This document shows positions 21,750 through 52,231 of a stretch of 64,000 nt of DNA, one piece after another. A program made the translations under genes and the position numbers. This DNA is from Octopus vulgaris (taxonomy: Eukaryota), in the NCBI GenBank assembly GCA_951406725.2, contig OX597823.1:102424001-102488000 (forward strand). Direction: 5' to 3'. Position 1 is the stretch's first letter, and each line of letters opens with the position of its first letter. The notes beneath the pieces are model-generated. The model saw nothing but the letters and a program-made list of their open reading frames with translations, was not told the DNA's origin and searched no databases.

Positions 21750-23935
21750 AAGCTTTACACGTCACTAATTTCTGATCCGTGTAGGATATATAAATAAACT
21801 GTGAACAGCTAAAGGAGGACCTGTCTCTAGTATTCACTACTATCCTGTCCATATGAGACCTGAGAGATCCGTCGTTATTACTCCAAGTCTACATTGAGTC
21901 TGAATCGATCTGCCAACCTAAATCGCTTCAGCAGATCGATGAGACGTGAGTTACGTTTCCAACCGGTTGAGCCAACGTTATCTAAGCGTGCGTCTAGAAT
22001 AGTGTTAAAGTCTCCTAACATTACTATTGTCTTTGACGTCACTAGAAAGTCCTCCAAGCGTCGATAGAACTCATTCCGTTTTCCTGCTGTGCAAGGTGCG
22101 TAAATGCCAATCAACCTGAAGATTTTACCACTGAAAGTCAGATCCAGAACGACTGTATCACATTCCAGGTCTACAAAGATTGCACTTGTCTGCAGAGCCA
22201 AGCTTTTTCCGATCAGAACCACAACACCACCCCATCCCTCTGTCCGACTAGGAGACATGATTTTCTCATAGTCAACTTGGTCTCTGTAGCAACCATAATA
22301 TCAATTTTGTGACCTGAGGTCGTCGAGGAAACAGGCTTGCTTCCACTTCGAACTCATGCCACGCACATTCAGACAGCCTAGTGCAGCCATGTCAAAAATC
22401 AAGAAAAGAAGGAAATTTGCCTGCCTTAATCCAGGGGGATCGTTCTCTGTATCACTGAGACTTGGACCACCCACTTCGTCTCTTCTAAGGTAGGTTCCTT
22501 CGGCGGATCGAACACTTTGGGCATGTCTATTAGTTCAGCTATCTCTTTTGAATATCTGTTTTTCAGATCTTTGTAAAGATCTCGGGGTATTTTTGCGATA
22601 CTGTTTGGGTTTTTGGCATGACCAGTCCGGTAAATGTTGCATTTTAAGTGGGGCTTGATTATCCCCATCATGGTATTATTAGTGTTTTTAAACACTACAG
22701 TGGTCCTTTCCTTTAAATTATGAGTGATGTCTATTTTTTGAAAGGCTCGTAATTTTTTCTTCTCTTTCTTTTTTCTTTCCTCCGGGTTGTTTTTCTTTCT
22801 TTCCTTAGTTTTCGAAGCTGCTTCTTTGCTTGGTGACTCCGTTACTTTTTTAGGCCTTTTTCGCGACACCGTTTCGAAGTTCATTTCTTCTACTGACGGT
22901 GCCGCTTCGGCCGGCTCCCTTTCGGGTTCTAATTCGGTGGTCGCCCTCTGTGTAACTGTATCCGTGGCCAGGGGCACCGCATCCTCTGTATTCTCCACTC
23001 GTTCGTTCTCCTGTACCTTTTCCCTTTGTGGAGGGAAGCATTTTGACCTCAGGTGCCCCTTTTTTCTACATTTGAAGCATCTGGGCTTCCTCCCCTCCAC
23101 GTGTACTGCTAGCACGATATCCTCACCGAACAGAATCCTTTCAGGCAAATTTTCCAAATCAATCATGGCAGCTTGAACCAGGACCTCCAGCTCTGTGCTG
23201 CGTCTCTTGTTATTTGTATGACACCCATTTTATCCTCCCTCTCGCAAAGCAGCGTGGCCAGTATCCATACCACTTCCACCTCCGGCGGGATATTCTTAAT
23301 TTCAATCCGAGACGCTCCACATTCCAGATATAGTGGTAATATCACAATCCCACCATTTTGCAAGGTTCAAGTCGATAATTCTTTGGCCTTCTCAACCGAC
23401 TCGAACCTTGCCTTCACTGTTGCGAATCTTGTACCTTATCTGGCCCGAGACAGCCCCCCATTGCACCCTCTTCCAGGTGCTCAAAATGCTCCTTCTCGGC
23501 GTTGCAAGTCTTATTCACAATTGAGCTAGTTATTGGTTCTGCTCAAAATTTCGCTGGGGCGCAATCCCACATTTGCTGTACGAGGCCTGAACTTCCTCCC
23601 CCTTCTATGTGATTATTTCACTTCTTCCCACAACGGAGGAACTTCCCCCCACTGAAGACACCCGTTTTCAAAAGCCTTCACAAAAACAACAACAAAGCAC
23701 GTTCCAAAATGGAACACAGCCCGCACAAAATAAACAATAATTTCAACAATAACTTACTGCAAAATCAACTTTACAATGCTTCCCTTACGGGAAATCACAA
23801 CAAAAAAATTAACAATTCCTTCAAGCAGGCAACAATAACACCAACCTTACAGGTATAACAGCTTACACTCAGTCCCAGCCAATAACTAGCTCAAACAAAA
23901 GGTTCACGCTAACTGACTTTGGCTTACGGAGTTCT
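21750..23935 (-). mobile_element. Tx1/L1-like LINE, 5' part only (5'UTR, ORF1 with CCHC knuckle, APE endonuclease), disrupted
   Basis: ORF1 22426-~23650 contains VEGRKPRCFKCRKKGHLRSKC. EN starts at 22390 (GCLNVRGM, IYAP, LGDFN) and continues after a break as DGSLRSHMDRI...SYTDQKLV to ~21750. No RT. Confidence 0.88.
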
Positions 23936-26889: not shown

Positions 26890-27355
26890 CTAAGAGGAGG
26901 GGGCTGTGTTGAGTCCGTGTGGGGTTAGAGTCTGTAGAAGGAATATGAGCCGTTGCTCCAAGTGAAGCCTAGATTGTGGAGAGCCGTTGTGTGGGACAAG
27001 ACCAAACACCGAGATGTCATCAGGGGAATGGCTGGCCGAGCAGTAGTGACGTGTAACGGGAGAATTGGAAAGTAGACGAACATCCCTCAGATGTTCGGCG
27101 AATCGGTCTGACAACCGGCGTCCCGTCTGTCCTATATACAGCATTCTGCAGCGGTTGCATTTAATGCAGTATATGAGTCCAGACGAGGTGCACGTAAAAG
27201 AATGCCTGATACGTACAGTTCGCCGGTTGGAACCGGTGACAACAGTGGTGTTGGTGATGAAGGGGCAGGTGTTGCAGCGGGATCTGGAGCATGGGAAGGA
27301 TCCGAGTGGGGCCGAGGGGTAAGAAGGAAGGGTGCTACGGACCAGGAGGTCGCAT
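26890..27355 (-). pseudogene. GIY-YIG endonuclease domain with Cys-rich Zn motif (PLE ORF remnant)
   Basis: LIY...YIG, catalytic R (DRFAEH), E (HLEQ) and GLN motifs; upstream C-x4-C-x2-C typical of Neptune PLEs. Confidence 0.9.
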
Positions 27356-27549
27356 GTATGTATGTGTGTGTGGTATCCAGAAGATCCAAAAGGCAGGTAA
27401 GGCTATGTAACGCGGGTCGTGTGTGAGCGTGTACAGGATGGAATATCTTTTATATTCCTGAAACAGCTGTAAGACTACCTTTCTCCTTATAAAATGTCCT
27501 AGAAATTTCACACTGCCTTGGATTTGTTGACTCATTTTATTTGACCTAT

Positions 27550-27779: not shown

Positions 27780-30766
27780 ACGACGGGCTTCCATCTACCA
27801 AATTCACTCCCTAGGATTGGTCGGTCCGAGGCTAGAAGAAGAAGGTACAGCACTCGGAGACTGAACTCCAAACCTCGTGGTTACGAAGCGAACTTCTTAC
27901 CCTCACAGCTATGCCTGCGCCTTTAACAATGATAAAATAAAACGTACAAATAATCCAGCTGCAACCAAGCTGTGTTTTTCTGTTTGCTAAATTGTGACTG
28001 AAACCAATAAAGAATTAAATTCACACACGTCACAGAAATGCAACCGTAGTCATTGTAAATATATTCACCGCCATGTTATCTGGTGCAATTAACAAATGGA
28101 TCTTGAAGTCACTTTTAAACTGTTAGTAACTCTCCGACTAATAAGAAAGCGTGTTCTTTCTTAAGTTAAAAGGAGAGAGAGAGAAAAAAAAGAAAGACAT
28201 TACTGGGTTATAGTTAACTTCTAAACAATATTAAACATTCTTAAGTCGGCCATTTCCTTTATGCTCACTCACTCATCTTGTATCTACTAAGCTAATTACT
28301 CCGTCTTGCACGAAGTACATTCATTTAAAAACACTGACGTCATTCAAACAATTGTGTTTGCAATTATGTCACAATCGACATAGTTTTGTAGCAAGGTTCT
28401 CGCCTCAAGCATCTAATTTTACACATAGTTACCACTTAGCAACATTTTGGTTTCTATTTAAAGGTGAGACAGCAGACACTTGACTAAATAGTAAGAACAG
28501 CAACTATTAATTGTCTCGATTTCCAGTGTTACACAACATTGTTGTAAATCCTTTACAGCCATGAACAGTAAGTTTGTCATCTTCTGGCGAAATGAATAAT
28601 TATGTAATGTTATTTTTAAAAATGACAAAGGAGGGGTGGGGTGAAATACACAGAAACGCCATCTGCGTGATAAATAAAGTAGGGGCTAGCCTAATGAAGC
28701 GAACTACGTGATTTTACGCTTGTAGTGAGGAGGGAAAAGCCATGATCTTTATTAAATTTTGTCAAGAAAGAGAAGGGAGACAACTTCGTAGTTTAACATT
28801 GAACGCAAATGTCGAGCGGCAGTTTTTCGGGCACTTTACGTTCTGAATTAAAATTCCGCCGAGGTCTACTTTGCCTTTAAAATAAGTGTCAGTTGAGCAG
28901 CAGAGTCGATGTAATAGACAAGCCCCTCCTCTCATAATTACTCTCATAATTAGTCATGTATCAAAATTAGAAAGGATAGTACCTCCGAAAAGAAAGTTGA
29001 AATATTACTTAGTTTCGTTGCCGAATACTGTGTCTTTGAATTCGCCTATATCACATTCCCTTTAAACAAATCTTGGTTATTCCTCTCCCACTTGCTTAAC
29101 TAAATGCATCAAAAACTTGTAGAAGTGAAGATCAGGATTTTTATTTTCAGATAGAATATGAAGACACATTATGCGTACGAAGTGTTAACTGCCTCTTCCA
29201 ATCATGAAATTACCGAATATAAAACTACTAACTCCTGGGTCGTGAGTTCATGCCCGCTGCAAACGTTTATGTTTCATTCATTTTCATTCATTTTCATTCA
29301 GACTTAAATTTATGCATTTGCTCGACTTACAAAGATAGTAACCATATCTCTCTCAAAAAATAGAAGGAAGAACATTTTGATTTATGTAGTTCTAGGCATA
29401 TAAAAATACAGGACGGTCAAAGCTGGAACATCTCTGATCATAGGTATGCACGCGCAGAACTGATCTGGGGTTAAACATGTTCAGTTCATTTTGTTGTGAG
29501 GAAATAAATCTTTCACAAAGTGGCGGAGCGTGGGTTTAGGCCGATCACTGTGCTAACCAAAATGGCCTCTCTCTTCCTTACAAATAGCATACCTTTGACT
29601 GCAGCAAACATACTTATATAAAGTGGCTGTTCTGTGCAGTGTACACACTCGACCTTATACCACTAATAGACTAGCGTTCCATCCAATAGTTTCATAGTTT
29701 CTCATCACTTTAACACATATCTTTCTTTACATTTCGGCTCCATTTTGGAAATGGGTGTCGACTGGGACAACGATTGGAAGGTTGTTTGAGACAGAAAATC
29801 TATGAGATTGAAGCAAAAAGTCATGTTGTTTAATCATGTTTTATTTACAGGTCAGCCCATATAAATGCCCACGATCAAAGGCGTCCAATTAACGGTAGAC
29901 TTGAAAGTAAGTTTTGTGAATTTTCCCCCTAAATGATTCTGCCGGAGCTTCTAGAATTTTTGACTTAATGTTATAAAGGCTAGGATATTGAATTAACAAG
30001 AGATGCACGAAGCAGTGTTGATTGAAACAGACATGTACAATAATCTAATACGTTCGTGTGCACTTGGATGTGGAAAGATCTTCACTGCAGAGACTGTCTT
30101 GGGATAAATTTTCCTCTTACAGACAGTGTATGGCTGCTCCATGTGCCTCTAGTTAATTCCACTTTGACCAAGCTTTGCACACATCAGAAGACCAGTGCTT
30201 ATAGAAGAATATCTTTTTTATTTACATACGATGGCGAGCTAGCAGAATCGTTACCATACCAGGCAAAATGCTTGGAGGCATTTCTTCCGACTCTTTACAT
30301 TCTGAGTTCAAATACTACCGAGGTTGACTTTGCCTTTCATCCTTTCAGGGTCGATAAAATAAGTATCAATTGAGCAGTGGGGTCGATGTAATCTCTTTCC
30401 CAAAATCTCAGGTCTTGTGCCTTTAGTAGAAAGAAATATATATATTAATAGTTATCGCCATACTAATATGGCAATCTTATAAATATAAGACTAAAGCTGT
30501 CGATGATTAGCTCCAAGAGGCCACCGCCTCAAGCTAGCTATTTGACACACAATCTGCGTCCATTATAGACTTTCGAACAGGGGAGGTCAGCCGCTTCATC
30601 CTGCTAGTCAGACAGCTGCAGACGCGTTTCAGGGTAGTTGCCCTTTATCACTGCAGCGTAGTCAGACCCAGCTTTAGTCTTATATTACGTTATTGTTGAG
30701 TGGAGGTTGTGAGATCGAATGAGTTGGTGGAAGCGGTTGCGGCATTGAGGGATTTTTTTCTCAAAA

Positions 30767-32129
30767 ATGCAAACCCAAACGTATGCAGGAGCGGCAAGCA
30801 AGGACCTGGCTGCAAGCGAAATACAGTTGGAAGAAGTTACAATCGAGAAGGAGATTTTGAAGAATTATTTCGACAGCTTGAAAAGAGAAGGTGACTGTGT
30901 AAGGATCACACCACCTGAAGAAGAAGCTAAAGAAGCTGAAAAACGTATTATAACATACAGAACGTGGAATGTGGCTTCAAAGAAAATAGAATTGGCAGAA
31001 ATTGCGGAGATTGAGTGTTGTCTGCAGAGACTTTTTAAAATGGACGACCACTGTTGCATATTTTCTACCTCTGTTATAGAAGGTAGGTACCTTCTATAAC
31101 AGAGGTAGAAAATATGCAACAGTGGTCGTCCATTTTAAAAACGAAGAAGAAGCGAAGAAGAACGCTACGCAAATATTGAAAACAGAAAAATTGATGTTAT
31201 TACCAAGTTATCGTGGGAAAAGAGCAGTTAGAATACGAATCAGTAAGATTTCGCCAGAGCTGAACATGGAAAGAATTTTAGCAGCAGTGGTATTCAACTG
31301 CAAAGAAAGCGTTGAAATATTAAATGTTAAAAAATCAAAAGATGTACAGTGGTGGGGTTATGCAGTGCAGGTTTTGATTCATATAACCATACCTGATCTG
31401 TATAAAATCCCAGAGGAGTTGTTGTTCCCCGACGAGACTCCACTCAGAGGCGTGGTGGAGGGGAGACCACCCGTGTGCTACAAGTGTAAAATTAGAGGCC
31501 ACATGAAAGATGTGTGTCCGACTAGAACATTGAACACTCGGACAGAGATAGTGCAAATGGAGAATGTAGAATGTGTAAACACAGAAAATGTGGAAAGTGG
31601 TGACGAGTTGGAGAAAGAAAAGGAAAAAACAGAAGTCAAAGAAGATAGAAAAAGAGCGAGGGTGGAATCACCACCTAAAGTTCAAAAAAAGAAAAAAACG
31701 AAAAATAAGACTACAGACGAGAAGGATGATAGTATGTGCGAAGATAAGAATATAAAAGAGACAGAGAGAGAACCGGAAAGTTTAACGGTAGACCAAAAAT
31801 GGAAAAGAAGAGCGGCAGAGAAGTTAAAAGTATGCAAAGAAGGAAGAAGACCCGAAGGAAAAAATCTTAAGGTAGTAATATTGTATATGAAAGACAAAGA
31901 AATCGAAAAAAGACTGGCAGGTAAGAAAGGTTTAATCAGAGTTAGGCTAAACCCAGAAATGTTTGATGATCGAGTGAAGTCGGCGGTGATAGATAAAGAG
32001 ACATTTTTAGAATTGAAAAGTGTGTTTTCAACTGTTTGTGCAATGCAATATATCCGTTACGACAGTTTGCCTGCAATAATAGATCAGAAGGATTTGATAA
32101 AATACATTACAGATGAACGCCCAGTATAA
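30767..32129 (+). pseudogene. Tx1/L1-like ORF1 (gag-like, CCHC zinc knuckle), split into two frames by an inverted duplication
   Basis: PSYRGKRAVRIRISKISPE and VVEGRPPVCYKCKIRGHMKDVC, homologous to the ORF1s at 22426-23650 and 48610-50140; frame change at the 31032-31141 hairpin. Confidence 0.85.
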
Positions 32130-32334
32130 CAAAACTGTATTTTAAATGAAATTACGAGTTTTGGGGGGCTCGTAAACATTCTATATAATTCATTATATAT
32201 AATTCATTTTCATATCATATTTTTATTTTTAAATTTATGTACCCCACGTCCTGTTTTTGTAATGTCCTCTAAATTCGGGCCATCGTGCCTATAATAAAGA
32301 TAGTAGTAGCGACACCTGCTGGGTCTGACTACGT

Positions 32335-32373
32335 TGCATTGATAAAGGGCAACTACCCTGAAACGCGTCTGCA
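32335..32373 (+). ncRNA. Minimal type I HHR, U3:A8 variant (mirror copy on - strand at ~30617-30655)
   Basis: tgca-TTGATAA-aggg-caacta-ccct-GAAAC-gc-GTC-tgca. Confidence 0.65.
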
Positions 32374-32647
32374 GATGTCTGACTAGCAGGATGAAGCGGC
32401 TGACCTCCCCTGTTCGAAAGTTCATAATGGACGCAGATTGTGTGTCAAATAGCTAGCTTGAGGCGGTGGCCTCTTGGAGCTAATCATCGACAGCTTTAGT
32501 CTTATATTTATAAGATTGCCATATTAGTATGGCGATAACTATTAATTTCCAGTAACGCTGCCGTAATCTCTTTTATAGAGACTTAGTAATTTTAATATTT
32601 CTATTAAATATATATATATATATTTAACAGCAGTAAGAGATCTTATA

Positions 32648-34004: not shown

Positions 34005-34851
34005 GGAGCAACGAAGCTAAAGCACACAGACTGAAGCCGCTTGGCACAGATTGACCTTGAACTCTGTTGTGCATGCGTACTAAGTTTTAATGTTCTAGCT
34101 CACTTCCGCTATTTACAGCAGTGCTTTGAAGGAATGTATTTAGCGTGTGATCGTCGCAATTACTAACATAGAGAAAGTTGAGCATAGAATCTACATCATA
34201 TTTTGACAAAAGCTTGGCGATACCTGCTCAGAGGCCTATGTAAAGTTTCCAAAAAGTTTTCATCGTTCTCGACACAATCAAGGAGATCTTGTGCAACTGA
34301 AACCCGAGTGTCCTTTTGGTCAGCTGAAAGCGGTTTTGGCACAAACTTAGCAGACATGCGTCCCATACCCAAATCTTCAGCAATGATGGACTGAACTGAG
34401 CCGTAACTAATCTGCACAATCTCTAATAACACATGGATGGTGATTTGACGATTCTCCTCAAAGTTGCACGCACATCTGCGATGTTTTTCTTGGTTCTGTT
34501 GGTTGAGGGTCTCCCTGAACATTCGTCAATATTAACATCTTTTCAGCCATATTGGAAACGTTTGAACCACTCGTACACTTATGTGCGGCTCATACACTCC
34601 TCACCATACACTTTCTGCAGCTTTGCGTAGGCGTCTGAGCAGACAACTTTCTCACAACTTTCTCTGTCATGGTCAATGCGATGATCACACGCTACACACT
34701 TTCCTTCCAAGCACTGCTGTAAACAGCGGAAGTGAGCTAGAATGCATGCACAGCAGAGTTCAAGGTCAATCTTTGCCAAGTGGTTTCACTCTGTGTGCTT
34801 TAGCTTCGTTACTATAACAACAGTCCGGATACTTATTGGTCAGATCTCGTA
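34005..34851 (-). mobile_element. Mariner derivative made of two inverted 5' ends
   Basis: Transposase N-terminal peptides (AYAKLQKVYGEECMSRT; IAEDLGMGRMSAKFVPKPLS). 34005-34250 is an inverted homolog of 34615-34812; TIR tacgagatctgaccaataagtatccggactg on - strand. Confidence 0.8.
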
Positions 34852-44643: not shown

Positions 44644-44998
44644 CTAGCAGTATCGCTCGGCGTTGCTTGGGTTTGTTTCGACCCTTTAGAATTGGAATTT
44701 TTGAAAAGTAAAAATTTTGCATTATGTAGCTTGTTATTCTCTTTAAGTGAACATTTTTCTGGTTGAAATACACCGAAAAATGGCGACACAGCAGTCAAAA
44801 TAATAGTAAAAAATAGGAATTTTCATAGAAAAAAAGCACCTTTTTGATGTAAATAATTTTTGGTGTTAACATGGTCCGATTTGATTTTTTTTTCCTACGG
44901 AACGAAGAGCAAACCTTCTTCTATCATACTCTCAATTTTGGTCAACTTGCGCCGCAGGGTCTCGGAGGAGATAGTGTTAGTTGAAGGCTACCAAACCT
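44644..44998 (-). mobile_element. Non-autonomous Helitron-like element (3' part; resumes at 50384-~50419)
   Basis: Reverse complement ends cccaagcaacgccgagcgatactgCTAG|t (subterminal hairpin + CTAG). Confidence 0.6.
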
Positions 44999-45215
44999 TG
45001 ATTTTTTATTATCCATAATGACATACATAGAATGGACGATACAATTACGGATGATTTTACATTTACAGCGCAATTTGGGGTCGATAAAAATTTAACATGA
45101 TTTTATATAAAGCGAATGGATAAATAACACAATGGACATTTTTTAAACAAATGGAATGGGGCGGGTTTACGGACCCCACGAACCCCGCCTCTCACTGACC
45201 TCGTTTTTGGGGGGC

Positions 45216-48200
45216 TTATCTCGCATCCACGAGAGACCTTTTATACACGACATTCTTCCATCTTTCATCAAACACTTTCTTACTCAGGCACCTCCTCTCC
45301 GGTCCTGTTTGTCTCTTTAGGTGGAACATAAAAAATTCCACCAAACCAAGACCAGAAATGAAGTTGCCTGACATCAACTCTCTCATCGTTGTCTCCCATA
45401 CTACCTGCTTCGCAGCTGCTACCACAGAGAGAAAACAATTCTTACCTTCTTTCGTTAAGAAATCCGGCGGGTCAATTTTCACTATGGATTCAGTTGATAG
45501 CTGTGCTCTTCCTCCACCTGACAACAGTTGTTCGGCACAAACCTGCATGTCTGACACCTCTGGACACTGCACAATCGCGTGCGAGACAGTTTCCCTGTCT
45601 CGCCCACATCTTGGACAGATCGGGGTGTCGTTGCCACCATGCCTTGTGAGTTTATCCCGAACAGGTAAGGCACCTCGGTAACACTGCCATGCCAAGGACT
45701 TCTGAAAATTATCCTGGGTCCTCGGCTCGAATGTACGTTGGAACATTCTGGCCAGCTGATTATCGTCAAAACCTAGGGTCTCCCTTAATGTATCATTGCA
45801 ACCGGCCTCTACAAACCCTCTATAGAAAACAGCGGTAGAACCACTGCTGCAGGCATTGCCCGAGCGACAGGAGAGTCGGAGTGCCTTACGGCACTCCGTG
45901 TACCACGTACCCAACTTCGAGCTACGATTATACTAGGCTTTCCGTCCACCGAAACTGGTGAACCTGGGAAACATGTTTCGCCATCGGAGACCACACCCGT
46001 TCACCATCCAGGTAGAGCCACAGATGCCTTAACCTCAGCGCATTTCTGCGCATCATTAGCCACGGCATCCCTAGTCCACCCTTTAACGGTCGTTGACAAC
46101 AAACAGAGCGTTTCACAAGCGGTTTCGAGCTCTTCCACAGGAAGCGGAAGAGCTGTCTTTCCAGCTTGGTTAACCACGAATCCGGACAAGGCACGACGGC
46201 AAGGCGGTAGGTGATCACCGATGCGATAAACACATTGGCTACCTCCGCCCTTCCTTTCAGGGATAGCCACCGCCAAGACCAGGTCTTGACTGCGTGGGTC
46301 ACCCTGCTCATTACCTCGTTCCAGTTCTTCTCTATTTGGAGGTCTGGTCCGAACCAAACCCCGAGCAACTTAATCGGACCCTCCGTCCAACATCCCATGA
46401 CGCTGTCTGGAGGCATCGACTTGCCTCTCCAGGTGCCGAGTTGCAAGTCGACTGACTTTTCGCGATTAACTTTTGCTCCTGCCACCGTCTCGTAAGCCTC
46501 TATGGCCTTGCCTACTTTACGTAGGAGGTCCACTTCGGTCACGATGATACTGATGTCATCCGCGTAAGCTGAAACCGACATTCCACAACCTGGTTGTCTC
46601 GGGATGCCGCTCAGTTTTCGTAGCAATGGCTCAAGAGCCACTATATACAAAAGCGGGGAGGGCGGACACCCTTGACGAACCGAGCATTTGACACTGAACA
46701 GCTTAGACAGAAAGCCGTTCACACGAACTACCGAGTCGACGTTGTCATACATTTCAATGATCCACCTGAGGAAGCCAAGACCTAGGCCGAACTGTGCCAG
46801 AACGGACACCAGGTAATGATGGTCGACCCTATCAAAAGCTTTCGATTGGTCTAAATGGACCACTGCCCCTCCCTTGCCGGAATCGTTATTCATTCCATCT
46901 ATGGTGTATCTAATAAGATGGAGATTATCCTGAATGGACCTGCCGGGTACGGCACATGTTTGTGCCTCCCCGATTAGTCCATCCGCGACACGCGCCAATC
47001 TTTTCGATAACACTTTGGCCAGTCTTCAGCTCTGCGTTTAGCAGAATGATGGGCCTAAAATTATCAATGACGTCCCCCTTGTCCGGGTCCTTCCTGACTA
47101 GTGTCACTACTCCCCGGCGCACAGATCTGGGAATAAATCCATTCTGCTGCCAGCTCGCGTAGACGTTCGCCAGTAAGTCCCCGAACAAGTCCGGCATACT
47201 TTTATATAGCTCGTAGGGTAGACCATCCAGTCCCGGCGCTTTACCCGCGCTCCAGTCAGCCATGGCCTCTATTACTTCCCCAGGCGTGATCGGCTCCTCA
47301 CTACACTTCGCATCCCGCTCCGAGAAGCGCGGCAGCCCGTCGAGGAAGTCCGTTAGGTCCCTCCTCCTATCCGGTCCGTCGCTCCCCTCAAAGCTGGGCG
47401 AAGTGGTCCTGAAAAGCCTCACACATTTCCTCGGGCTCGTCTATCAACTTACCTTGTTGGTTCGTCAAAGATCGAATTGTGGCATCGTTGCCACGTTGGG
47501 CTTCCACCACTCGGGCCCATCCCGCGGCATTAATTCCTTCGCTCCCCATTGCACGTTGTCTAGACCCGACAATATAACCCACGTGTTTGGCTTCGAGGTG
47601 CTGGTTCAAAACCAGTCTCTTGACCTTCACCTGGGCTGCCGTGCCAGTTCGCATTGCTTCTTCTAAGTCCTTAACTATTGCTGATTCCCTTCTAGCCTCT
47701 CTAGCTACTAGACCTATACTATATCTAATAGCCTCATATCTGATGGCTCGCTTGAGGGCATACCACCGTTTGTTGTTAATAATGGATCGGTCAATGCCCT
47801 CTGAATCAGTAACTTAATCCGGCCTCTGTACTCCTTAATCGCCAAAAGGGACGTATTAAGTTTCCAGTAACCGGGACCTCTATATAACTTATCTATGTCG
47901 AGCCTACAGGTGACCATCTTGTGATCACTGTAGCTGACCATGTGAAGCTGTGGACGCTTAGCTATTTTTCTATCTACTTTTCTAATTAATATTCTGTCTA
48001 TGTACGATCTGGAAGATCCGTCGCTGTTTGACCATGTCCACAATGGAGCGTTCGGATGTTCCAGTCTATATGGATCTACCAGCTCGAAACGTCTTAGTAG
48101 ATCCTGGAAGCAAGCATTTCCTTTCCTATCAGGTCGCGAGCCTACACAGTCTACCCGCACATCGTAAATTGTGTTGAAGTCTCCTAGTATAGCTAAAGGA

Positions 48201-48607
48201 TGCGATGTACTAAGAAACTTTTCCAGGTTCCGAAAATATTCGCTTTGCCCCGCTGTTATTTGGGGTGCGTAAATCGCAACCAGTCTGATTGTCTTACAAC
48301 TGCTTAAAGTCAAGTCAACGACGACCAGTCTACCTTCTGAATCTGAAAAAATCAACCTTTTCTCAGAAACCCGGTTCTTTTTCCATAGGACCAACACCCC
48401 ACTTCCGCCGGACGGACGGCCCGGAGAGATAATTCTCTCGTAACCGTCGAACAGCGGGAGCAGATCTCTTGGCCCCTTTAACCAGGCTTCTGTGGCAACA
48501 ACAACATCTAAATCCTGTGACCTGATATCATTTAGAAAGCGCCCTTGCTTCCAGTTCGACATCAGGCCACGCACATTTATGCACCCTACATGAATGCGAG
48601 ACATCAC
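45216..48607 (-). pseudogene. LINE ORF2 (APE endonuclease - RT - zf-RVT)
   Basis: EN GCINVRG/IYAP/LGDFN/YIDRI/SDH (47714-48607); KAPGLDGLPYELY; RT LDQSKAFDRV, VRQGCP, AYADDI (45928-47013); CPRCGRDRETVSHAIVQC. At least four frame breaks. Confidence 0.95.
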
Positions 48608-48609
48608 CT

Positions 48610-50140
48610 ACCTTAAACGGTCGTCTTTGTTTTTCCGGCTGTTCGTGGGGTGAAATTCTGACTTAAGTCCTCGAACAACGACTCATGTAAGTCGTGTCGA
48701 GGACCGTAGATGTCTGCTTTATATTTTGAGCGAATGATATTTAAATTTAACATATCAATTTTATATATGTCTACATGTGTGTTTGTATCTGTAAGGCTGA
48801 TGGCGTGCTATTAATATCATTTTCTTTATTAATGGCCATGTACACCATGTTAAGAGTCACATTTTCTTTTCCTGGGCTTTGTGGGGGTGATGGGGTGAAC
48901 GGTGGGGTGGGGTCTTGGAGGGGAGGAAATTGTTCAACACTGAGGGGTGGGTGGGGGTGGTTATCCGGGATGGGATGGGGGTGCTTTACTTTTTTTCCTT
49001 TTTGTGGGGAACCGTGGTGGGGTGGGGTAGTTTTTTCCTGTGTGTTTGCTGTATTGGTTTTTTTTCTTGTTTGTGCTTGGGGTGGGTGGGGTTAAATCTT
49101 CATTCCTCCTTTTCGGAGTCTTTCTCTGTCTCACCGGAGTGAAATCGTTTTCCTCTTCGGCGTCCTTTTGTTTTTCTCTTCCGTCTCCTTTCGCCTCTTC
49201 TCCTCCGCTTCCTTTTTTCTTCCTCTTTTTTGCGGGTGGAGCAGTCCACTCGAATGTGGCCCTTTTCTCCACAATCGTTGCACCGGGGTTTTCGCCCCTC
49301 TACCACCACCCGCAAAGTGATTTCTTCACCAAAGTTGATATTCTCAACAATTTCTTCCAGTGTTTCCGGTGCCGCCTAGATAGTAACTTCAAGGCTCTGG
49401 CCTCGCCAGTTTTGTTTCAGGACCTTTGTCACTTCTACAATGTTTATTTTTTCTTCCAGCCCCATCAGTAAGGCTGGAAGCAACCATGCCACTTCGATTT
49501 CCGGCGAAATCTCTTCAATTTTCACTTTGGCGGTTCTCCTTCCTAAGTAGGTTGGTAATAAAATGATTTCATTTATTTTGATGGGTTTTAGGGAGTGGAG
49601 TTTTGCCTTGTTTTCGTTTTTGAAATATACTACTATTGTGGCATATTTCTTCCCTCTTGTTAATTATTCGATGTCGTTCCAAATCGGCTGCAGGCACTTC
49701 TCTGCCTGCTCATTCGTTACTTTCTCCATTTTTTTTTTGTCCTTTATCACAAAGGATTTATATACAATAATTCTTTCTTGTGTCTTTTCCGGATTTCATT
49801 TGGAAGGGTGGCCTTTGCATCGGTCCCCTCCCTCGTGTACATGTCTTTGAATTTCATGTACTCATTTTTTTCCATTTTTATGACTTCTGTTTTTTGGACC
49901 AGCCGCAGCTGCGAAGTTGAATGCTTTGGTTTCTTTTGAAGACGAATCTTCTCTGCTTGCTTGTTTAGCTGAATTGGTTGCTTGTTTTGGTAAATTTTCT
50001 TTGGTTTGCTTCGATAAATCTTTTTCATTTTTTAATCCAGAAGGCGAACCTTCAATGGCTTCAAATGAAGGCGAACCTTCAACAGATGAAACTGACAGTG
50101 TTTCCACTGCATACATTTTTTTTGAAGAAGAAGACAACAT
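48610..50140 (-). pseudogene. LINE ORF1 (CCHC zinc knuckle, Lys/Glu- and Pro-rich tail)
   Basis: NFAAAAG, PTYLGRRTAKVKIEEISPEIEV, RVVVEGRKPRCNDCGEKGHIRVDC; multiple frameshifts. Confidence 0.85.
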
Positions 50141-52231
50141 GTCTTCCTTGTTCATTTTTTTCCACAGAGTTATAATATTTTTGTGTATATGTATGCGAAA
50201 AAATGCAACACTTTTCCCCTCCGTAAGGAGGGGAACAACAGTTTTTTTTTTGTCTGTTATACAACAGACGCACAAAGTTTAACAGCAACAATAAAATTCA
50301 ACAATTTTCAACAATATTCAACGCTAAACAATTTCTCACAACAACACTCCACTTCGAGAATAACACAGTCAACCACGTGACGAGAAGGCTACCAAACCTG
50401 CCATACACAGACAACTTCATTTGTTCGACTAAATGCAGTGCTCCAGCATGGCCGCAGTCAATTGACTGAAACAAGTAAAAGAATAAAATATATACTAAAT
50501 CTAAAGAAATGAATTCAGACAGAATACAAGAGTTGCCTCCCTTTAAAATTATTCATTAGACAAATGATTGATTGATTATTTTGATTAAATAAAAACTTAG
50601 TCATTGGACTACGGCCAATGACTTGAGTAAATGATATAAATAAGGGTTTAGTTAAAAGAATCAACCCCAGAACTTATTTTATTATAGCCTAGTACTTATT
50701 CTATTGGCTGTCTTTTGTAAACTACTAAGCCACATGAATGTAAACAAACCAGCACCGGTTGTGAAGCGGTGGCGGAGAACAAATGCTATACACAAACACA
50801 CACATACATATGGGCATGAGTGCATGCATTTTTGTGTTTGAGTTTATTCCCTCACCACTGACTGACAACCACTGTTAGTTCATTTACGTCCCTGTATCTT
50901 AGCGGTTCAGCAAAAAGAAGCTGACAGAAAAAGAAAAAGAAAAAAAGCTGTGCCCCAGCATAGCCGCAGTCCAATGATTGAAACAAATAAAACACTCAGA
51001 TACGACGCACTTATGCACAATTCCCATTAATCCGACAACAGTTGCCCAAAAATCCGCGGTGTAGAGTCGAGCCTGAGAGAACGTGGTTGCGACACGAATC
51101 ACTTAATCACAGAGCCATACTTGGTTTTCGAAAAATAAAGTGTTCTGCTTCAAACATTTGTTATTTCTTCTCGCTCTGCACTAACATACATACTTTTGAG
51201 AACGTTTGCTCTTTGGTTGCTTTCTTCGAAGAATTTCCCATTTATTTTACTCTTTAAACATATTTGTATATAGAATGAAGTTATTAAATCCACAACCCTC
51301 TTCAACAAGGGTAGAGACACTTTTCAGAGCTGGGTCGTATTACATGGTCACAAGAGCCTGTTAAAGGCTACACCCTTATTGAGAGAAATGAAGAACGTTT
51401 ATTACCGTCATGTTTACAGATGTGGGTTCGAGTCCACCGGGCAGCAACAACTTTTTCTAATTAAAGTATTTTCAATTCAATATTTACACGCTGTTATTTA
51501 TAGCTTTATCTGATTCGAGATCTACAGTTCTAAAAAAGAATATTCAATTAAATTTTACAAATCCATAGGTATGCCACGTAAATTTTTCGGAATGACACAA
51601 ATATTGTATTACTTATATCAAATTCCTTACTCAGAAACATGGATATTTTAGAAATAACGTCAACGAATAACTTCAAATTTGAGTTATCGTGATATTTCGC
51701 CGGCCCGTGAGGCAATTATCCGTCCTTGCTTTACATTTCATCCAGGCATCGATCTATACATGTTCTAACTGAATATCAGTTGCATCACCATTACAGGAGG
51801 ACTTACAAAAGTAATGGTCACTCTATTTGTTTGCCTAACTGACATTAACTAATTAATTAGTAAACTACAATAATAGCAGCAGTTTTATCTATGGGAATCA
51901 ACGGTTACTCAGACTGTGACACAGTTTTTTGATAACCGGTGAATCTTAATCGTTACGTCACTAATGCTCTGGGAAAGACTTAACAGCACTTTTCTCCTTC
52001 TTTACAGAAAAGTTAACCTCATTACTCATAACTTTATGACACTGATGCTGGACTAGCGAGAAGACAGCGTAGTAACAGACGAGAGGTCGGGTAGAGCATT
52101 CTTCGTCGTTTTGTGTTCAAATCCCACTGAACTTTGCCGTTCATCCCTTCAGGATCAGATTATTTATTTTAATATTTTTTTATGCGCCCTTTTTAAGCTT
52201 AGCTAGGCTTGTATATATATATATAAAAGCT

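Follow-up and report, generated by a model that had tools for sequence, protein, structure and literature searches.

We analyzed a 64,000-nt stretch of the Octopus vulgaris genome (contig OX597823.1, positions 102,424,001 to 102,488,000 of the forward strand; the window, in whose coordinates all positions are given unless a locus is named), in which a retroelement cassette with a single open reading frame (ORF), ORF1, lies between hammerhead ribozyme repeats of opposite orientation. We consider it likely, at a probability of roughly 0.7, that the cassette is a damaged member of a multicopy ORF1-only family which, like the full-length Tx1-type long interspersed nuclear elements (LINEs) present at its site, integrates ∼25 to 30 nt downstream of a TATA-like box, at a likely transcription start site and mostly in hammerhead repeats of the retrozyme type, and creates a target-site duplication (TSD) there.

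The whole insertion begins on the left with an AT run (30434 to 30443, no strand assigned), by sequence a Penelope-type target. On the 5′ side follows an inverted partial copy of retrozyme family A (30444 to 30672, minus strand; ∼17 to 241 of the monomer), comparable to the head-to-head inversions of cassette-free copies; its type I hammerhead motif (30615 to 30657, minus strand) has the variant core GUGAUAA and is likely inactive. An inverted-to-direct switch via the sequence CAGC leads into an 18-nt direct retrozyme piece (30669 to 30686, plus strand), which joins the cassette through a 3-nt ATT microhomology (30684 to 30686). The cassette, an ORF1-only Tx1-type element (30687 to 32304, plus strand), lacks its first ∼35 nt. 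ORF1 (30767 to 32129, plus strand; frame broken) comprises a region resembling an RNA recognition motif (RRM), a CCHC knuckle (31476 to 31517), and a C-terminal domain, and the 3′ untranslated region (UTR; 32130 to 32304, plus strand) has the terminus AATAAAGA plus a 4-nt tail, without poly(A). Next comes the right side of the target site (32305 to 32319, plus strand; retrozyme positions +1 to +15), which flanks sister copies as a duplication and whose left copy has been lost here. It opens a direct retrozyme A copy (32305 to 32606, plus strand) that runs from the putative start site to where the 3′ end of the family normally falls and is followed by an AT run. The type I hammerhead of this copy (32333 to 32375, plus strand; core UUGAUAA) has a 4-bp stem II and a palindromic stem III, ACGCGU, with cleavage predicted after 32369.

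Much of this layout had been recognized in an initial annotation made from the sequence alone. The arms it listed (30444 to 30672 and 32318 to 32546) are 229 nt each with 5 mismatches, the 18-nt direct copy is exact (30669 to 30686 equals 32491 to 32508), and both arms carry the hammerhead-like motif, of type I as judged by motif. There is also no endonuclease (EN) or reverse transcriptase (RT) in the cassette and no TSD around it at this locus, and the reported AATAAA of the 3′ UTR is located at 32293. The right repeat, taken to be 229 nt, is longer (32305 to 32606) and ends in the AT run, as is common in cassette-free copies. The CCHC knuckle reported for ORF1 is there (zf-CCHC, E = 0.015, below the cutoff); what had escaped notice is a perfect 54-nt foldback (31032 to 31141, no strand assigned) that disrupts the frame. 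At this position the nearest copy (C19, 97% identical) has 11 nt instead, and the foldback splits ORF1 into frames of 110 and 349 aa. The foldback is private to the window copy: the reverse matches that would have made it a family-wide feature stem from the query's own inverted segment, and Rfam microRNA matches on it were rejected as artifacts. At its left junction, the window copy has lost the promoter and the left TSD along with ∼35 nt of the cassette, and it is dead, whichever of the origins considered below holds.

That the cassette belongs to a family of its own, with a fixed insertion site, is practically certain. A DNA search with the cassette gave 268 candidates, 40 of which were scored, and a 24-nt pattern for the 3′ end has 77 exact matches in the genome and none in the control. 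Copies measure ∼1.6 to 1.8 kb between TSDs, usually of ∼11 to 22 bp, and 5′-truncated copies are also present. ORF1 is under purifying selection: among the fetched loci, 19 distinct copies have an open ORF1 of 434 to 459 aa, and the pairwise ratio of nonsynonymous to synonymous divergence (dN/dS) of these ranges from 0.18 to 0.36 across dS bins, which cover 162 of the 171 nonindependent pairs. Five of the intact copies are almost identical. A multicopy, selected ORF1 without ORF2, together with TSDs and 5′ truncation, is the combination seen in HAL1-like elements. Look-alikes of the ORF1 protein (ORF1p) are CCHC and ZCCHC3-type proteins, and an ORF1 homolog search found none among 7,997 candidates. 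The AlphaFold model of ORF1 (mean predicted local distance difference test score, 38) reaches moderate confidence at residues ∼346 to 428 only; Foldseek returned no match at E ≤ 0.001 and VIA-align a best Z of 5.6, which supports neither side on the fold or on the tethering discussed below.

The flanking repeats look like monomers of nonautonomous retrozymes, which are reported to be derivatives of Penelope-like elements (PLEs) and are described as noncoding (PMC7229834; bioRxiv 10.64898/2026.07.22.740005). Adjacent target sites give 358- to 364-nt monomers with one hammerhead each, and these form tandem noncoding units with type I hammerheads, as in retrozymes without long terminal repeats (LTRs). 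Stems I to III vary in sequence yet remain paired across repeat families. Rfam gave no hammerhead match in the window at E ≤ 1, nor in 16 loci at the gathering score. A search gave 2,296 candidates for the repeat family of the window, and the genome holds 132 of its target sites without an insertion (≤1 mismatch); head-to-head inverted arms occur in many cassette-free retrozyme copies. Similarity between families A and B3 is concentrated in the region before the target site (71% over 77 nt). In families B1 to B3 (e.g., L018 and L140), stem III is longer than in family A and many copies have the hammerhead core CCGAUGA, with C at position 4. An abundant PLE family represented at 26890 to 27402 (minus strand) was examined for a link to the repeats and showed none in the 30 loci of this one family that were checked; a pattern search found no hammerhead near its 3′ end. 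The window segment is the GIY-YIG end of this very abundant family, which has 16,066 candidates and many long open frames.

To a large extent, the insertions share one site. Fifty-eight of the 77 3′ ends lie at a single homologous retrozyme position, either directly or via a stack of elements (57 by pattern and L095 by eye). This site precedes the hammerhead core by ∼25 to 36 nt and recurs across several divergent repeat families with units of ∼360 nt; the bases at the nick vary among targets. The TATA box has the consensus TATAWAWR, which we used as an 8-mer with ≤1 mismatch on 47 insertions hand-picked from 118 3′ ends (some loci duplicated) for a credible TSD and a left flank that is not another element's tail. 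A TATA-like 8-mer is found at −34 to −22 from the TSD in 43 of these 47 insertions; at randomly chosen positions of the window, the rate is 13%. Counted by distinct target, 13 of 17 have it (shuffle mean, 2.0; none of 5,000 shuffles reached 13). Sliding windows peak at −36 to −20 and drop to 0 to 2 of 17 far away. Targets that are not hammerhead repeats have a TATA-like box in seven of seven cases (shuffle mean, 0.87; maximum, 5 in 20,000), and two of them (L008 and L207, with single-copy targets at C6:83.99 Mb and C20:16.65 Mb) are single copy and received full-length insertions. Because the same TATA spacing is found at these non-hammerhead targets, the hammerhead was ruled out as the targeting signal.

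U2 small nuclear RNA (snRNA) provides a further reference point. At L009 (L009:1304-1494; G000:C7:33.74 Mb), the cassette ends 6 nt before a full-length U2 snRNA. At L006, which lies in an unrelated flank, the first bases of the element match the 5′ end of U2, and at L029 the element start equals the TSD of another target, suggesting RNAs that began at the host's +1. From the differing cut sequences, the constant position of the TATA-like box, and the use of U2 +1, we infer that the target is, with good probability, the transcription start site. In a published Penelope pseudo-LTR (pLTR), TATATATA stands 20 bp before the initiator (Inr) (PMC3846280).

Some targets and arrays outside the retrozymes were noted in passing. 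Upstream of L112, L198, and L209, the flanks carry a multicopy promoter that serves as a target and contains both CCAAT-like boxes and TATAAAA. At L196 (G000:C4:70.04 Mb) and L198-L199 (C4:27.05 Mb), non-hammerhead targets hold head-to-tail arrays of at least five young, near-identical ORF1-only copies behind a TATA box; some of these arrays end in a further LINE family whose ORF1 is ∼38% identical. The 3′ tail of the young subfamily (L016 and L196 to L210) matches the 3′ end of an abundant repeat inserted in L016 that resembles a short interspersed nuclear element (SINE), suggesting a SINE that uses the same LINE machinery.

Full-length LINEs occupy the site as well. A search for any AATAAAGA end at the site of one repeat family gave 10 loci, 3 of them with RT upstream. 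These three and two more loci (together L191 to L193, L204, and L205) have LINEs at the retrozyme site that encode ORF1, EN, RT, and zf-RVT; all frames are broken, and the elements measure ∼5.4 to 5.7 kb where the fetched sequence spans both ends. Their APE endonuclease, RT, and zf-RVT, together with the RRM-like domains and CCHC knuckle of ORF1, are the Tx1 domain set. Several of their best database matches are from fish, frog, and lancelet, and most have a ZCCHC3-type RNA-binding domain (RBD_ZCCHC3) and an RT. We take the ZCCHC3-type ORF1 to be linked to Tx1, and the Tx1 assignment is by domain content. LINEs and cassettes are stacked in both orders with TSDs between them; whether the youngest copy stands next to the promoter was ambiguous by eye. 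The two have the site, the AATAAAGA end, and a homologous ORF1 in common.

Retrozyme and cassette have also been copied together. End layouts were compared at 23 loci, picked mostly because they have no clean left TSD. Cassette sequence lies inside inverted arms at L099, L129, L116, and L005, and at L132 the layout of the window recurs in repeat family B3. One retrozyme-cassette deletion junction, in direct orientation, is common to C1, C9, C10, and C15, whose cassettes are 95.5 to 96.9% alike, and in C15 this junction directly abuts an inverted arm in an AT run. The layouts and the shared junction show that a composite served as the template for these copies. Penelope elements are reported to flank foreign genes with pLTRs in direct and inverted orientation; published pLTRs carry TATA and Inr motifs and form inverted 5′ arms (PMC3846280). 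They are also reported to copy RNA that has not been cleaved, to initiate internally, and to insert at AT-rich targets (PMC11167929).

The initial annotation had offered two alternatives for the window, a chimeric element with PLE ends and an ORF1-only LINE nested in a PLE pLTR, and each of them holds in part. A self-contained chimera, that is, a coding retrozyme family with inverted hammerhead repeats as constitutive ends, agrees with the copying of composites as units and with L131, L145, and L150, where the cassette lies between two direct hammerheads. However, most cassettes have their own TSDs, the window's left junction occurs once in the genome, and among the best 30 repeat matches fetched (29 loci) a cassette end adjoins only the window's two arms. 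The unique left junction and the TSDs that the cassette has elsewhere mean that its constitutive ends are not the inverted repeats; the chimera is largely refuted for inverted ends and must be regarded as very improbable. The junction found at more than one locus is the direct-orientation junction of the four copies above, not that of the window. As for nesting, the cassette is indeed an independent element, with its own TSDs elsewhere and a junction unique to the window, which is what had been expected of a one-off event; the event is not a one-off, given the recurrent site in the repeats.

How the window copy arose can be narrowed to two histories. We lean toward one Penelope-type copying event of a composite RNA, in which one sloppy round of copying would have produced the inversion, the microhomology jump on the 5′ side, and the foldback together. 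The other history, plain nesting, assumes the same family and targeting but has the cassette insert into an already inverted retrozyme, after which repair lost ∼200 bp (promoter, left TSD, and 5′ end) and added the foldback. The same inversion pattern does occur in cassette-free retrozymes, L127 and L101 are inverted copies with promoter, TSD, and cassette intact, the window's left junction is unique, and the nearest cassette (97%) resides in a retrozyme only 90% identical. Yet nesting requires two independent later rearrangements in arms that differ by only 2.2%, and composite templates have been found at other loci, with an identical layout at L132. We favor the single copying event and regard nesting with two later rearrangements as a substantial but secondary possibility.

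A mechanism that joins these observations can be outlined. The ORF2 of the LINE would supply EN and RT in trans, and ORF1p would work in cis. The position of the promoter would determine the site, and ORF1p may be tethered to the preinitiation complex in the way proposed for TRE5-A ORF1p and TFIIIB of Dictyostelium; on this analogy, we put tethering through ORF1p at somewhat below even odds. The host promoter would transcribe the element from +1, so that its RNA would open with the host's first ∼15 nt and read through into the hammerhead repeat. The T runs that open the element suggest RNA polymerase II (Pol II) rather than Pol III. At times, the read-through RNA would be reverse transcribed by Penelope-type machinery, yielding AT-flanked, TSD-less insertions with 5′ inverted arms.

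Several points weigh against this reading. The −34 to −22 interval was set after inspection of the data, on hand-picked rows, and the hammerhead targets are homologous and thus nonindependent. The motif is missing in 4 of the 47 TSD-defined insertions, and the proposed identity of the start site rests on motifs and on U2. Two full-length copies, L006 and L007, have no convincing TSD or promoter. Twelve of the 77 ends belong to 5′-truncated copies at sites outside retrozymes, and none of seven truncated off-target copies with TSDs of 16 to 20 bp has a TATA-like box at the position. Cassette and LINE share a single 22-nt DNA match, with ORF1 proteins ∼30% identical, so that their pairing is circumstantial and mobilization in trans an inference. 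No Penelope ORF (RT plus GIY-YIG) adjoins the repeats in the fetched loci, and no donor locus was found for the window composite.

The off-target truncated copies also lend themselves to a reading without promoter-directed targeting, in which a loose endonuclease cuts widely, only copies at start sites are transcribed, and their RNA, with host leader and read-through sequence, anneals to homologous repeats. Variants of the target sequence are borne by the element at the left junctions of several loci, and multicopy targets hold most insertions, as such selection and annealing would have it. This reading has difficulty with the full-length insertions at the single-copy TATA sites L008 and L207 and with close copies (branch lengths, 0.004 to 0.06) that lie in unrelated targets at equal spacing, and we judge it unlikely. 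Slightly less likely still is that an AT-rich, bendable motif, set at a constant spacing from the cut, is recognized by the ORF2 endonuclease or some other DNA-binding domain, without transcription factors. The target choice of Tx1-type elements is usually ascribed to the endonuclease (PMC4494074), and the spacing is fairly tight. On the other hand, AT runs are common in the genome, yet insertions are not next to microsatellites; the sequence at the nick is unconserved; and U2 +1 is used without a TATA-like box at that position.

Each part of this system has relatives. ORF1-only nonautonomous LINEs are known from the L1, Jockey, and CR1 clades as HAL1, HeT-A, and Ag-Sponge (PMC5786205, PMC5753468). 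Like them, the cassette encodes ORF1 only, has TSDs, and presumably depends on an autonomous LINE; unlike them, it is Tx1 type and site specific, lacks poly(A), and has an ORF1 only ∼30% identical to that of the same-site LINE. Among the targets of Tx1, Keno, Tx1-Mar, and SINEU are multicopy sequences, including transposons and U2, and U2-derived 5′ additions occur (PMC4494074). The octopus family likewise prefers multicopy targets, U2 included, and shows U2-derived 5′ additions. Known Tx1 targets are set by sequence, whereas here unrelated sequences share promoter geometry only, and retrozymes or pLTRs are not among the targets given for Tx1 elements in the excerpts of PMC4494074. With non-LTR retrozymes and Penelope pLTRs the repeats share tandem ∼360-nt units, one type I hammerhead, TATA and Inr motifs, 5′ inverted arms, AT-rich targets, and comobilization of framed foreign sequence (PMC7229834, PMC3846280, PMC11167929); unlike in described retrozymes, a second retroelement class parasitizes one site here and the composite is recopied.

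Ty3 of yeast and TRE5 of Dictyostelium are established examples of elements that insert at a specific position of promoters, both at Pol III genes. TRE5-A.1 and TRE5-A.2 are an autonomous and ORF1-only pair whose ORF1p is cis acting and binds TFIIIB subunits, including the TATA-binding protein (TBP) (PMC3159450, PMC5911963). The octopus elements resemble them as a putative pair of this kind and in keeping a fixed distance from a promoter, through a complex that is described for TRE5-A and would be analogous here. In contrast, TRE5 elements insert ∼50 bp upstream of Pol III-transcribed tRNA genes in opposite orientation and have their own promoter module, whereas the octopus family lies in sense at the putative +1, behind TATA-like promoters and at U2. 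Ty3 integrates within a few nucleotides of the start via TBP-containing complexes (PMC5911963), similar to the start-site insertion proposed here, but it is an LTR element with an integrase that targets Pol III genes in yeast. A literature search that left out Repbase, supplements, and most subscription papers, which may list one, did not turn up an animal LINE that targets either TATA-type start sites or hammerhead repeats.

If the proposed targeting is right, the retention of ORF1 in ORF1-only elements would be explained by its role as a cis-acting targeting factor, the retrozyme promoter would be marked to within a few bases, and two retroelement classes would relay one RNA. By its sequence, a cassette flanked by two hammerheads, as at L131, L145, and L150, could possibly form a coding circle. 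The fullest scenario, which we consider speculative, is a LINE pair tethered by ORF1p to Pol II starts that parasitizes retrozyme promoters in TSD-separated stacks and whose two-hammerhead cassettes yield a ∼2-kb coding circular RNA spread by Penelope machinery. Such a system would comprise three levels of parasitism and would be a natural integrator that seeks promoters. Should the reading be confirmed, the young family, with its near-identical intact copies, would be amenable to direct assay.

The window holds further elements. At ∼44900 to 50385 (minus strand) lies a separate decayed Tx1-type LINE with EN, RT, and a 16- to 17-bp TSD, whose ORF2 DNA is 65 to 69% identical to that of the retrozyme-targeting LINE; the 5′ motif that the initial annotation saw in both this LINE and the cassette is present, as a short match. 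Another decayed Tx1-type fragment (21878 to 23529, minus strand) retains an ORF1 with a knuckle and part of EN. At 34007 to 34813, long inverted ends (arms of 76 to 88 nt) surround transposase fragments, which we take to be mariner-like.

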